64,000 bases of DNA, taken from positions 32,194 to 96,193 of the forward strand of contig JACVQJ010000004.1 in assembly GCA_015661075.1 (NCBI GenBank), read 5' to 3'. This DNA comes from Parachlamydiales bacterium (GTDB lineage: Bacteria > Chlamydiota > Chlamydiia > Chlamydiales > SM23-39). This document shows, one piece after another, positions 57,901 through 63,900 of the stretch. The position numbers were made by a program. Each line of letters begins with the position of its first letter. Positions within the stretch are counted from its first letter, which is position 1.

Positions 57901-60900
57901 ATGAGATCCAATCGTCTCTCCGTGAAAATCCCCCCTTGCGCATGTCTGATGGAGACCTCTTTCGCGAAGGCGTTCATCCCGAGTTGGACCGCTTGCGCGG
58001 CCTCAGCCAAGATAGTATGGACTGGATCGCCCGCTATCAAACGGAGCTGCGCGAAAAAACCGGCATCCGCACACTGAAAGTGGGTTACACAAAAGCATTT
58101 GGCTATTACATCGAAGTGAGCCGCGCGAAGGGCGAAGGTATTCCCGAAGGCTTTCAACGAAGCCAGACTCTCGTCAATGCCGAGCGCTACGTGACCGAGG
58201 AGCTCAAGCACTATGAGCACAAGGTGCTCTCCTCCGATGAAAGGGCCAAAGCCCTCGAAGCGGAGCTTTTTGAAGCGCTCCGATCCAAAATTGCGCTGGA
58301 AAGCGACACGATCCAGGGGATCGCCAAAGCCCTCGCCCGGATCGACGCCCTGCTCTCGCTATCCCTGGCTGCCCGCGATCATCGCTTCAATCGGCCCGTC
58401 GTCGATGACAGCGATGTCATGGAGATCCAGAATGGCCGCCATCCCGTGATTGAGAGCGCCATCGGCTCGTCCCACTTTATTCCCAATGACACCCATCTCG
58501 GGCCGCACCGCCAGATGCTGCTGTTGACCGGCCCCAACATGGCGGGCAAATCGACCTATATCCGGCAAGTCGCGCTCATTGCCATCATGGCGCAAATCGG
58601 CTCCTACGTCCCCGCCGAATCGGCCCGCATCGGCGTGATCGACAAGGTGTTTTCGCGCATCGGCGCGAGCGACGATCTGGCCCGCGGCCAGTCGACATTC
58701 ATGGTGGAGATGAGCGAGACGGCCAACATCCTCCATAATGCGACCTCGCGCTCGCTCATCATCCTCGATGAGATCGGCCGGGGAACGAGCACCTACGACG
58801 GCATCTCGATCGCCTGGTCCGTCGCGGAATTTTTGCTTACGGCTGCCAACAAAAAAGCGAAGACCCTGTTTGCGACGCACTACTGGGAATTAACTCGGTT
58901 GGAGAAGGAACATAAAGCAGCGGTGAACATGCATGTCGCCGTCCAGGAAACGGACAGCGGGATTGTCTTTTTGCGCAAGATCGTGCCCGGCGGCACGGAC
59001 CGCAGCTACGGCATCCATGTCGCCAAGCTGGCCGGATTGCCCTTTGCGGTCATCCGCCGAGCAGAAGAGATGCTGGTCATGCTGGAACAGATGCGGCCGG
59101 CAAAAGAAAGCGTTCCGGTTCCCAAAAAGAAGCGGATCGAAGAGCAGATGCCGCTTTTTGAATCGATGATCATCGAAGAGCTGCGCCGCATCAATCCCAA
59201 TCAATTGACGCCTATGCAGGCCCTGCAGATCATCGCGGATCTGCAAGCGCGCGCGCTATCGCTAAAAGGAAAAACGGCTTAGAGTTAAAAGGCCTCAACC
59301 TCATCCACTGCCCCAGATCGCCCTTCAATTATTTCAAGTTTCCTCGACGATCGCATAACCATATCGAGCAATTGCCGGCTCATTACATCAGCTTGTGCAG
59401 AAGTCAAAGAATCGCCATCTAGTCCACTACCCATCATTACCCCCGCTTTGTGTAATATATACCAGGCAACAAAGCGCGAGCATCTCCAGGCATCGAACTG
59501 CATTTTTTTAAATTTATCATTAAACGTATAATCTTCTAACTTCAGTTTTTTCATGAAGTCATTCAGAGTTAAACCACTATCTCCTAGAATGCGCTTTTTC
59601 CCGTCTTCTTTTAAGGTCCGGCCCTGCGAATCAAAAAAATGAACTGTTTTTGTGTCTTTATCAATAAAAATACAAACAACATGATCTCGAAACGCGCCTT
59701 GCAACACGATGGGAATGAAGATTTTTTTTGTTTCGCTATTCTGAAGCTGAGCCAGCTTTGTTGTTTCTGATGCGTTATTTACAGATCCAGTATAATCTGC
59801 GATCATGGATACGCCCTTCGATGCGAAAATCTTCGAGTCTTCTTTGACACTCTCATCTGCCAAAAATTTCATAAGCCCAAACCCGCACAACTTATGCTCA
59901 TTGAGTTCACACATCAACGGATAATTCGCATTAGTTGCGAATTCCCCTGCCAGTTTCTCTGGCGGGTAGATAAAATTTGGCGAGAAATACTTGGCACCCA
60001 GCGCGACAATACCAGTAATTGTGGGGGCCAATGTTGCTAACAAAATCGGTGAGATAACGTGTGCGCTCATTCCAATCGAGGCGCCTATTTTTCCCGCAAT
60101 AATGGCTCCGTAAATGGCAAGGGGTGCACCGGGAAAGAATAGGAGGCCAGCAGCCACTAATGAAATGACGGCAACAGCGCTGACCACTGCTAATGGCACC
60201 CTGCGTTGCTTCCCAAAACCTCCCTTTGTAGCCGGAGAGCTTTGAGCCGATTCATCTACCTTTCCTGGTGTAGCAATTGGTGCAGGCATAATTATAACCT
60301 CACGTTTAATTATTACTTACTATTATACCAAAACACAAGATGTTAGTCAATTCATAGCTATTAATTTAAATAATGTCAATACGATAATGCTAAAGCACTA
60401 CGTACCGCTTCCCAAACGTATTAAGAATACTTAATCTATATGTGGATTTTAAGGGATCGTTCAAAAATAACTTTTAGCGTTCTCGAGGGAAAAATCGATT
60501 TATCTATTGAGAATTTTTCCTTGCAGAGAGAAACAAGACTCTCAGCCAGCTGCGGAAAAATTCTCAAAATCTAAACCGTTTTTCTCCTCGACAACACTAA
60601 ACTTTATTCTTGAACGATCCCTAAGCTAATTGTGTTCATTATTCACTGCAACTGATATTTGATCCCCAAATCGACATAATGCTGATTTCGGGATCGATAT
60701 TTTAGTCGTTTTTTTCATCCCGAAATCGACATAACGCTTATTTCGGGATCGATTTTATTCACACGACCTGCGATAATCGAGACAATTTAACTGGATGAGA
60801 AAATAGCAATGTCTTCTTTTATTGGACGTGAGCCTGAGATGGCGAGGTTGAAAGGCCTCTTAAGCAAGCGAAGCGCGAGTCTAATCGTAGTACGAGGCCG

Positions 60901-63900
60901 AAGGCGAATTGGTAAAAGCAGGTTGCTTGCTGAATTTGGCAAAGAAATGAAAAGTTTTTTCTTTTCCGGCATGCCCCCTGTGTTTAAGATGAATGCTCAG
61001 CTCCAGAGAGAGGAATTTGCCAATCAAATGGAAAGAGCCGGATTGCCTGGCGTTAAACCGGATGATTGGGGGAATCTTTTTTGGGCTCTATCAAAACATA
61101 CAGAAAAAGGGAAAATGCTTGTCGTTTTTGATGAGATATCGTGGATGGGGGGAAAAGATCCGACTTTTTTGGGCAAGCTAAAAACTGCATGGGATATGCA
61201 TTTCAGCAAAAACCCTCATTTAGTGATGGCTCTTTGCGGTTCCATTTCCTCATGGATCGAGGAAAACATTTTAAGCAGTACGGGCTTTGTCGGAAGAATT
61301 ACAATCGACCTTGTTTTAGAAGAACTTCCGCTTAATGTTTGCAACGCTTTTTGGCGTCCCAAAGAAAAACGCATCGGTGCATTTGAAAAATTTAAGCTTT
61401 TATCTATTACAGGCGGCGTGCCACGCTATCTCGAAGAAATTGCACCTGAGCTTCCTGCTGAAAAAAACATCCAGAATCTTTGCTTCACTCGGGGTGGATT
61501 ATTAGTGCGAGAATTTGATGAGATATTTTCTGATCTATTTTCGCGCCGTAGCGGAAGCTACAAAGAAATCGTCACTATTCTTGCAGATGGTTCAAAAGAA
61601 CTTCCGGAAATTTGTAAAGAATTGAAAAAAAGTCGGGGCGGATTACGAAATAAATATTTAGATGATCTGGTCATGGCAGGATTTGTCCAAAGAGATTTTA
61701 CCTGGTACCTGGAGAATGGAAAAGAGGGGAAATTAAGCCGATATCGATTAAGCGATAATTATCTCCGTTTTTATCTGAAATACATTTCTCGCAATCTTTC
61801 AAAAATAAAAAAAGGCGATTTTTCCAATTTTACATTAACCAACCTGCCCGGCTGGGAAGGTATTATGGGATTACAATTTGAGAATTTAGTTGTTCATAAT
61901 CGCAGTACTGTTTGGAAACTATTGGCTATATCTCCGGAGGAAGTAGTGATGGACGGTCCATTTTTTCAAAACCCCACAAGAAGACAACCTGGATGTCAAA
62001 TCGATTACATGATCCAAACGCGATTTCAAAATTTGTATCTTTGCGAGGTGAAATTCTCGAAAAATCGGATCGATAAAAGTGTAATTAAGGAAATGGAAGA
62101 AAAAAGAGAGCGATTAAAAATGCCCAGGCAGTTTTCGGTCAGACCTGTCCTGATCCACGTAAATGGTGTTGAAGATTCCGTTTTAGATGAGGGGTATTTC
62201 GATCAGGTGATTGATTTTAGCCATCTGTTAAACTGATCTTCAATGCCGTGTTAATATTAAGGCACTACGTAAATACCCGCGGCCCTGATCCGCTCGATCT
62301 CATCAGGAATCAGGGTAGAATGCGGGGAGAACAGGATGGTTATCCCATCGCGCTGCAACGCCGCAAGCCCCTCGCCCCGGATTAGCGGGCAATCCTGAAC
62401 CCTCAGCCATTGCAGCGGGAGATCCTTGAGCCTCTTCAATCCCTCATCGGTGATCCGATCGATGGATTTTAGAGTAAGATATTGAATTTGCAAATCTTGC
62501 AGTACATCCACTAAACGATCCCCCACTTCGGGACAATGATCGAGGGTCAATTCCACCAAGAAACGATTAGCGGCAATGAACGGCAAGATGGCCTCCTCCG
62601 ACACCGCTGCATCTGCGACGACGAGAAACCGCAGCGATTGGAGGGGCGCAAAATCTAGAAAGTGCTGATTGGTCCACCCCGCACAGCATAGGCGCAGATC
62701 ATGCAGAGCGCCCAGCCTGGCAATCCAAGGCGCCCATGTACTGCCGTCGAGCTGCGGGCACTCGAGCAGATTCAACTGCCGCAAATGGCGGGCCGGCTCT
62801 GTTGTCGGCAATAGAGATCGCAAATCATCGAGTCCTTGCAAACTCAGCTCTTCCAACCGGCAACCTTGCAAAAGATCCTGAACGCCGCGATCGGTGATCA
62901 GGGAGCAGTGAGAGAGGTTCAGCGTGGCGAGATGCGGACAAGCGCGACGGATTGCATCGAGTGACGGGTCGCTCACGCGCCAGCAATGAGTGAGATTGAG
63001 CCGTTTGAGGGCATCATTTCGGATCTTGAGACTCCGGATGTTGGCACACGATGTCAGATCCAATGAAAAAAGAGACGGGCGGCGCCGCAATTCTTCTTGC
63101 AGCTCTTCATCGGTAATGTCCCGGGGCGGAGCAAAATGCAGCCCTTCGTTTAAGCAGGAAGGCGGCGCCCAGGCGCGCTGATCGTAGAGCTCCTGAACGG
63201 CATTTGCGAAAGATTGTAATTTTCCTTTGAGGCGGCGCCACGAACGGGGCTGATTGATCCGTTCATCGGGATCGGATCGAATATCGAATAACTCTTCCTG
63301 CCCGACTCTGATGATCCCCTTCCATCGGCCCTGGCGCAGCGCGATGATTCCCTCTTCAAAGGGACACGACATGAAGACGCTGCGCTTTTTTTTTCGCATC
63401 AGGCTTGTCCCCAGGCTGTGGTGGGGCGCCTGAATCCGGAAGAGATCCAGAATAGTGGGCAACAGATCCATCTGACTGCACGGATCATCGATGATGCGGG
63501 GCTGATCGAGACCCTGCGCCAAAATGAGCAGCGGCACCCGCACGTCCTCTTCATAGAGCATGCGGTGCACTTCAATCGGGCGGTCATGCTCGCCCTGGGA
63601 CTGTCCATGATCTCCCAGAATGAAGAGAATCGAGTGTTGCAACAGATCCGCCTCTTCGAGCTGGCGCATCCATTCCTGCAACGCCCAATCGGTGTAAGCC
63701 ATGGTATTCAGATAAGGCTCGGAGAATTTGCGCTCCCAGCCAGGCGGAGAAATCCATGGATGATGGTTCGTGATGGAAAAGAGGTTCAGAAAGACGGGCG
63801 TTTTCTGTTTTTTCAGCCAATTGATCCCGTAGCGAACCAGCGCCTCGTCATGAATGCCCCAGCTCGTCGAAGCCACGCCAGGGAGAGCCTCCTCGATCTC

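Follow-up and report, generated by a model that had tools for sequence, protein, structure and literature searches.

This study investigated two paralogous genes, referred to here as A and B, and the paired palindromes that precede them in a 64,000-nucleotide stretch of DNA (the window) from a Parachlamydiales bacterium (GenBank assembly GCA_015661075.1, contig JACVQJ010000004.1, positions 32,194 to 96,193 of the forward strand). Feature coordinates, counted from the first base of the window, are collected in Table 1. The encoded proteins are 53% identical. The original prediction described palindromes upstream of B at 60661 and 60716 with an 11-bp spacer and a 55-bp period, and both the sequence and simulated windows bore out this description. 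The distal B site consists of GATCCCCAAATC-gacataatgct-GATTTCGGGATC, with 11 of its 12 arm positions complementary, and the proximal site of CATCCCGAAATC-gacataacgct-TATTTCGGGATC, with 10 of 12; the sites lie 55 bp apart from start to start, and as direct repeats the units are 89% identical over 44 nt. The left outer arm of the distal site, previously given as GATCCCG, is GATCCCC. A search for palindromes of this kind (arms of 12 nt, spacer of 11 nt, no more than one mismatch) gave exactly two in the window, at 20213 and 60661, both 5' of the two paralogs, and simulated windows contained a mean of 0.15 and a maximum of 1 of the same format. The paired palindromes are a real feature of this DNA and exceed chance.

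The A sites are likewise 55 bp apart. Aligned on the AAA core, the half-sites read ATCACC-AAATCG in A and ATCCC(C/G)-AAATCG in B, so that essentially one core base (position -3, A in the former versus C in the latter) and the flanks differ. The outer arms had been described as different in the two paralogs; the difference was located at position -3 and in the flanks, and the arms are not wholly distinct. Similarly, the idea of a common operator geometry applies to the internal geometry of the sites but not to their position at the promoter, because the proximal centre lies 54 bp from the ATG in A and 76 bp in B, which places the A array 22 bp nearer the start codon. The 11-bp spacer is itself palindromic in many relatives (TCGACA...TGTCGA), and the unit is therefore better described as a 35-bp palindrome. 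The 20-bp linkers (for example, 60696-60715 and 20194-20211) are also symmetric and comprise a T-run followed by an A-run in most loci. Because of this symmetry, half-sites also oppose one another across the linker, which makes the array an unbroken series of alternating dyads. On the + strand, a palindrome with its T-run resembles a terminator.

The protein family comprises more than 7,900 members at E <= 1e-20, mostly from Chlamydiota metagenome-assembled genomes. We fetched upstream DNA for approximately 100 loci (individual loci carry L numbers below), scanned 84 with the half-site template nnATC-NNN-AAA ... TTT-NNN-GATnn, and typed 82 for covariation; a metagenome scan with A yielded six loci, and three of 12 contig look-ups were without usable upstream DNA (P0064, none; P0129, 26 nt; P0113, 58 nt). 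The results revealed at least one palindrome in 76 of the 84 scanned loci and two to four in 64. The centre-to-centre distance was 54-56 bp in 73 of 79 intervals, and the proximal centre lay 70-80 bp 5' of the ATG in most loci. The spacing had been claimed to be retained beyond chance, and these counts establish the layout as a trait of the whole family. When six B-clade upstream regions were aligned, the arms and the -35 block were conserved, and the linker, the palindrome centre, and the sequence farther upstream had diverged.

More distant relatives carried comparable arrays whose arms are unrelated in sequence to those above. L084-L086 (44-46% identical) have two long palindromes each, of quite different sequence. 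L098-L103, which are viral contigs (52% identical), have GGAGAC-AAAGAT arms with a 54-bp period approximately 110 bp before the start codon; their -10 box lies between both palindromes, and the right arm of the second palindrome includes the start codon. Comparison of these loci with the others suggests that the array slides along the promoter between clades while its period remains fixed. A Desulfosarcina plasmid copy (45.6% identical) carries GACACNAAATC half-sites 54 bp apart, and a Paracaedimonas plasmid copy (26% identical) carries a repeat with the same 54-bp spacing. In a tree built without the winged-helix columns, operator classes tracked the protein clades; these classes include ATCCCC, ATCAAC, ATC(C/T)(G/A)(C/T), AGCAGC, GCCGT, (A/T)ACAAC, and A(T/C)CACC.

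Further arrays were observed behind the gene in L003, L002, L006, L009/L010, L011, L029, L043, and L070, where they start 24-40 bp 3' of the stop codon with a 55-bp period. The downstream pair of L003 (2925-3025) is a near-copy of the upstream pair, including the linker, and the downstream sites of L029 belong to a class other than that of the gene itself. No such array was found behind A or B. Several origins or roles are conceivable for the post-stop arrays: leftovers of tandem paralogs since lost, terminators, looping partners, or scars of recombination.

We then considered the position of the sites relative to the promoters. In an alignment of the loci, a conserved TTGATTTTAT occurs immediately 3' of the proximal palindrome and is followed approximately 17 bp on by a TATAAT-like box; judging from their sequence and spacing, these would be the -35 and -10 boxes. 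At the position of the putative sigma-70-type promoter of B, the corresponding boxes of relatives are TTGATT and TATAAT-like. The proximal B palindrome shares 2 bp with the putative -35 box. In A, as in its relatives L081, L077, L072, and L074, the inner half-site supplies the TTGATT itself, and the arm fills the promoter spacer. As expected of an autoregulatory operator, the site overlaps the putative core promoter of its own gene and is conserved together with it, the promoter being placed by consensus boxes.

An alternative explanation is that the palindromes act as RNA hairpins. They would be intrinsic terminators or insulators, screening the cassette against transcription from outside, and the post-stop copies would end the gene's own transcript. 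In folding predictions, each unit does form a hairpin with a U-rich run behind it; the energies are -16.0 and -13.2 kcal/mol in B, and proximal A reaches -25.2 kcal/mol (z = -8). Eight T residues follow distal A, and some loci carry arrays 24-40 bp past the stop codon. Nevertheless, arm mismatches showed no G-U bias (46 G-T, 37 A-C, 54 other), the hybrid palindromes of L088 lose pairing and retain two recognisable half-site classes, and the half-site sequence ATC...AAA is conserved beyond complementarity. The loops of 11-15 nt are atypical, and a terminator scan of the B region returned none. Rfam gave only sub-threshold microRNA-like matches for the hairpins. Although U-run hairpins were predicted, the units lack the combination of a GC-rich stem, a 3-8 nt loop, a U-tract, and G-U-tolerant covariation that marks intrinsic terminators. 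Neither the fixed 54-55 bp period nor the link to protein residue 276 described below would be expected of terminators, and we give the hairpin explanation little credence.

Among the protein models compared with B, the PADLOC-DB model PDLC04984 of PDC-S27 aligned residues 1-473 with profile positions 1-472 of 474 (E 3.4e-80), and A matched the same model over its full length (E 1.5e-79). PDC-S27 is an ATPase fused to a PD-(D/E)xK domain, abundant in archaea and bacteria, and an unvalidated single-gene phage-defence candidate (PMC12988326). Pfam ATPase_2 matched the N-terminal 210 residues of B with 40.8 bits against a cut-off of 33.2. Pfam HTH_5 (ArsR-type) gave a sub-threshold match on residues 253-294 (18.7 bits against a cut-off of 22, E 0.0016), and some relatives have precomputed PF01022 matches and are labelled 'ArsR family transcriptional regulator', a name that the HTH_5-like winged helix explains. 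Pfam DUF234 (PF03008) had no match in the whole protein or in the C-terminal 146 residues, which lacked any Pfam match up to E 10; a sequence search of the PDB and an NCBIfam scan returned nothing useful.

An AlphaFold model of B built on 30 homologues was confident, with a predicted local distance difference test score (pLDDT) of 91.5 and a predicted template modelling (TM) score of 0.88. In its winged helix, residues 265-271 form a helix, residues 278-290 the recognition helix, and residues 293-314 a beta wing, and the segment previously proposed as the recognition helix coincides with the helix at 278-290. The following domain has the order alpha-beta-beta-beta-alpha-beta and bears D399, E413, and K415, which are invariant in alignments A2 and A4. 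Modelled alone, this C-terminal domain reached a pLDDT of 88.8, and its PDB matches were exclusively PD-(D/E)xK nucleases (McrC, MspJI, NucS/EndoMS, Can2, and SduA), at marginal values (E 1e-3 to 1e-2, TM 0.45-0.55). For the complete model, the top Foldseek matches were the archaeal ATPase_2 proteins 2qen and 2fna (E approximately 1e-10), followed by the STAND proteins Sr35, Apaf-1, and NRC and by ORC/Cdc6, with a probability of 1.0; these are proteins with a DNA-binding winged helix. Fold matches and secondary structure agree on the STAND/Orc-Cdc6-like order of P-loop, helical domain, and winged helix. As far as sequence and model can tell, A and B are single-gene PDC-S27 cassettes, each with its own putative promoter and each encoding a predicted STAND/Orc-like ATPase with a winged helix and a PD-(D/E)xK-like nuclease.

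This fold raises the possibility that the sites serve as an assembly platform or cognate target, that is, DNA on which the ATPase-nuclease oligomerises and is parked or licensed, or a self copy of the nuclease target. Such a role overlaps with that of an operator and differs in the purpose of binding. The nearest folds (ATPase_2, Orc/Cdc6, and STAND) are those of oligomerisers, the 54-55 bp period outlasts complete replacement of the arm sequence, the half-sites alternate across the T-tract/A-tract linker as continuous dyads, and both the 3-4-site arrays and the post-stop arrays lie away from any promoter. Within the 64-kb window, however, paired sites occur at the two promoters only, and their fixed position relative to the -35 and -10 boxes is most simply understood as regulation. 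A nuclease target in the gene's own promoter would also need a protection mechanism, and nothing here indicates one. We consider a platform or target role unlikely.

The original prediction had proposed that winged-helix residues would covary with the palindrome arms across homologues. The analysis revealed such a covariation at the residue x of the motif K-S-x-G-G, in the turn before the recognition helix, which is R276 in B and K279 in A (numbered as in B below). The base concerned, at position -2, lies two bases before the AAA core. It is C in 23 of the 24 loci with Arg or Lys at 276 and in none of the 58 loci with another residue there. Among all alignment columns, column 276 was the best predictor of base -2, agreeing with it in 81 of 82 loci, and the next best column agreed in 77. 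Loci with Gln at 276 mostly have G or A at -2, and those with Leu, Ile, Val, or Met have A at -3.

Natural swaps of the residue were also looked up, with the predictions recorded beforehand. Among the seven first-round look-ups with usable DNA, L089, L090, L091, L092, and L093 matched the prediction. CCC is present in L090 (K in a B-type background) and in L089 (R in a Q-type clade), the latter with a single half-site only, at a contig end. L091 (L in an IRNKYLEDL background) carries CTA; L092 (Q) carries CGC in a single half-site, also at a contig end; and L093 (I) carries AAC. In L087 (Q in a B-type background), the change is exactly at -2, but to T (ATCCTC, four times) instead of the predicted purine, and L088 (R in a Q-type background) has palindromes that pair one C-type with one G-type half-site. 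The later look-ups L108 (R, CCA), L109 (Q, CGT), and L110 (T, CGG/CGC) fit the rule. The pairs L002/L087, L043/L089, and L022 or L049 versus L045 are minimal pairs that differ at 276 and at -2. When 5-12 changes were placed randomly on the tree in 20,000 trials, none matched the observed agreement; in a second simulation, which left open the choice of the best column, 31 of 1500 traits were predicted equally well. Column 276 falls within the turn of the helix-turn-helix, a place where base contact is expected. We regard the association as real, though not yet proven, and residue 276 (K279 in A) probably contacts base pair -2.

These results also bear on whether a different, host-encoded regulator uses the sites. 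Promoter palindromes are often bound by trans-acting regulators, a general fact that applies to any such site. Nevertheless, several operator classes occur in one genome, each tied to one paralog clade, and cassettes occur in different chlamydial families, on a Desulfosarcina plasmid, and in viral contigs. No neighbouring gene was shared between loci, where only the operator region and the gene itself matched, so that the encoded protein is the one candidate binder to accompany the sites everywhere. The association with residue 276 likewise runs contrary to a host regulator, which we find hardly credible.

The origin of the cassettes was considered next. A and B have a GC content of 40%, with 38-39% at third codon positions, compared with 59% and 73%, respectively, in the neighbouring mutS, and this low content relative to mutS points to recent horizontal acquisition. 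Two transposase-related features lie directly upstream of A (Table 1). Elsewhere in the family, one member lies between a phage portal gene and an integrase (L088), another near ParA and an integrase (L091), and a third next to TraE/TraL on the Desulfosarcina plasmid (L094). A, B, and their relatives are mobile, self-contained cassettes. No defence genes flank A or B within the window.

The palindromes might be mobility or recombination sites, such as cassette ends or attachment sites similar to insertion-sequence ends, with a secondary promoter overlap. The low-GC, alien character of the genes, the neighbours that are never shared between loci, the copies that are carried by plasmids and viral contigs or that adjoin integrases, transposase fragments, or a phage portal gene, and the L003 gene flanked on both sides by the same two-site block are all compatible with this possibility. 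Yet most loci, A and B among them, carry upstream sites only, and the flanks examined contained no target-site duplications or accompanying recombinase. The covariation with a winged-helix residue would also remain unexplained unless the protein itself were a recombination factor. A primary role in mobility therefore appears very improbable to us.

Table 1. Positions of the two paralogs, their palindromes, their putative promoters, and neighbouring features in the window.
Feature	Position	Strand	Description
Gene B	60809-62236	+	475 aa; ATPase_2 P-loop, helical domain, winged helix, PD-(D/E)xK-like domain
B distal palindrome	60661-60695		35 bp; half-sites ATCCCC-AAATCG and ATCCCG-AAATCA
B proximal palindrome	60716-60750		35 bp; half-sites ATCCCG-AAATCG and ATCCCG-AAATAA
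B promoter, putative	60749-60777	+	sigma-70-type; -35 TCGATT 60749-60754, 17-bp spacer, -10 GATAAT 60772-60777
B Walker A motif	60896-60919	+	GRRRIGKS, residues 30-37; invariant in alignments A1 and A2
B winged helix, predicted	61550-61750	+	residues 248-314; AlphaFold 2 (AF2) model and covariation
B recognition helix, predicted	61640-61678	+	residues 278-290; R276 (61634-61636) in the preceding turn
B putative nuclease core	61997-62053	+	D399 62003-62005, E413 62045-62047, K415 62051-62053; consecutive beta strands
Paralog A	20284-21711	+	475 aa from ATG; in-frame GTG at 20278
A distal palindrome	20157-20193		37 bp; half-sites ATCACA and ATCACC
A proximal palindrome	20212-20248		37 bp; ATCACC-AAATCG, perfect arms
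A promoter, putative			-35 TTGATT 20234-20239 inside the proximal palindrome; -10 TAAGAT 20257-20262
Transposase fragment	17920-18798		DUF772 and DDE_Tnp_1; directly upstream of A
Y2_Tnp-like open reading frame	18999-19949		directly upstream of A
Downstream neighbour of B	62257-63999	-	sulfatase domain fused to leucine-rich repeats

Two further sequences near B were noted. An inverted repeat at 60452-60622 (69-nt arms, 83% complementary, 33 nt between them) separates a divergent upstream gene from the B operators; Rfam gave only sub-threshold microRNA-like matches for it. It has short words in common with copies resembling miniature inverted-repeat transposable elements at other places of this genome and is probably the insertion of such an element. 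A weak site-like sequence at 61555-61587 (centre 61571; AGCTAC-AAA ... reverse complement of ATCTGC-AAG) lies within the part of B that encodes the first helix of the winged helix. We rejected the latter as an operator, because it emerged at a lax threshold, recurs at the same codon position in several homologues, and is probably conserved coding sequence. A wider regulon in the window was similarly rejected, since half-site searches outside both promoters gave single, chance-level matches only.

Taken with the shared layout, the findings favour the interpretation that the palindromes are self-operators through which each protein controls its own gene and whose specificity co-evolves with the protein; we consider this probable, with appreciable reservation. 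It builds on what was observed, namely, the anatomy of the sites, their conservation, the clade-specific operator classes, and the association between residue and base. In the proposed mechanism, the winged helix of the downstream-encoded protein would read both palindromes as operators, occupied by two dimers or a higher oligomer, one per palindrome, and the fixed 54-55 bp period may reflect the geometry of this oligomer. The proximal palindrome borders on the putative -35 box in B, and in A it spans both this box and the promoter spacer; occupancy would therefore most likely limit transcription of a potentially toxic nuclease, which amounts to negative autoregulation. The outer half-site ATC-NNN-AAA would hold the specificity and would have diversified alongside the protein, Arg or Lys occurring with C:G at -2, Gln mostly with a purine, and hydrophobic residues with A at -3.

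Several observations weigh against this interpretation. For the promoters, a consensus scan proposed another weak candidate for B (TTCACA-17-GACAAT at 60758-60786) and found no candidate for A. The B-type proximal site is centred approximately 51 bp upstream of the putative transcription start and touches the edge of the -35 box only, so that activation or a mixed switch is also possible. The site arrays located right after the stop codon in approximately 11 of 84 loci are not explained by plain autoregulation. Regarding the rule for residue 276, it was derived partly from the same data, and a conservative independent-pairs test offered only four to six pairs, of which 3.5-4 agreed and none was opposite, with a floor of p = 0.125. 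L030 departs from the rule, its R occurring with CAC, and the 52%-identity clade falls outside the rule, since R pairs there with A at -2. Mutual information and leave-one-out scans revealed no convincing determinant for -3 or -1, where A and B differ, or for -5; the top columns for these three positions were clade markers.

The suggestion of an orthogonal protein-operator code was consequently upheld in part. Operator classes follow the clades and residue 276 tracks base -2, but this residue does not separate A from B, and hybrid and foreign-class sites occur. Both A and B have Lys or Arg at the equivalent of 276, and both have C at -2. Because their operators differ by approximately one core base per half-site, binding of the A protein to the B operator, and the reverse, is plausible. 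Paralogs within one genome usually differ in operator class, as in JABDDE (CCC, AACAAC, and CCGT) and in the window (ACC and CCC), whereas similar operators (CCGT, CCGC, and GCCGT) coexist in CAWDGI. Half-sites of another class are often present in arrays (L028, L043, L044, L046, and L088). We also observed hybrid palindromes (for example, CCC with CGC; L088:600-750) and whole foreign-class sites upstream of the cognate pair. Such hybrid and foreign sites suggest cross-regulation, heterodimers, or operators in transition, and, from the sequences compared here, cross-talk between paralogs would be at least as likely as strict insulation.

A more speculative extension is that the winged helix and its half-site constitute an evolvable aiming module for an ATP-driven nuclease, the target word in the gene's own promoter serving as both operator and parking site. 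If this were true, every PDC-S27 paralog would be a defence enzyme with a sequence specificity of its own, and the multi-copy families in environmental chlamydiae would be a repertoire of DNA specificities. A single change, for example R276Q, would then redirect enzyme and operator together. We regard this extension as rather doubtful.

PDC-S27 is among the commonest candidate defence genes of bacteria and archaea. The conserved, probable self-operator and the amino-acid-to-base rule provide the first testable handle on the family: they predict the target of the winged helix and a specificity residue, suggest how copies could share one cell, and supply a natural set of related protein-operator pairs. 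In a phylum that is usually called defence-poor, the findings also mark two insertions of low GC content as mobile genes that are self-contained and probably regulate themselves. Palindromic self-operators and co-evolving regulator-operator pairs are well-known principles, and the family was already known as a defence candidate. The original prediction was not aware of an earlier description, and our literature searches on PDC-S27, COG1672, and ATPase_2-nuclease proteins agreed, finding no operators, DNA-reading winged helix, or specificity classes described in the papers searched.

Among known systems, A and B are most similar to PDC-S27 itself, whose model they match from end to end with the same ATPase and PD-(D/E)xK make-up. 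The closest functional analogue is provided by the controller (C) proteins of restriction-modification systems. Their C-boxes are tandem palindromic operators 5' of the regulator's own gene, the proximal one lying over the -35 box, and C proteins fall into specificity groups that limit the cross-talk of co-resident systems and restrain a dangerous nuclease. C proteins are, however, small Xre-type helix-turn-helix dimers with both operators within approximately 35 bp, whereas the putative reader in A and B is a winged helix inside an ATPase-nuclease, and the sites are 35-bp palindromes with a 54-55 bp period. Similar to A and B, Orc1/Cdc6, 2qen, and 2fna combine a P-loop domain, a helical lid, and a winged helix, and in archaeal Orc1/Cdc6 the inverted repeats recognised by the winged helix are often located immediately 5' of the orc1/cdc6 gene. 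In contrast to Orc1/Cdc6, nothing about A and B indicates replication, an unwinding element, or an initiator context, and their C-terminal nuclease-like domain has no counterpart in 2qen, 2fna, or Orc/Cdc6. In BrxR/CapW-type WYL-winged-helix-turn-helix regulators and RptR (PMC12255303), a winged-helix protein represses a defence locus through promoter palindromes. Those regulators are encoded by separate genes, whereas A and B would unite regulator and effector in one polypeptide.

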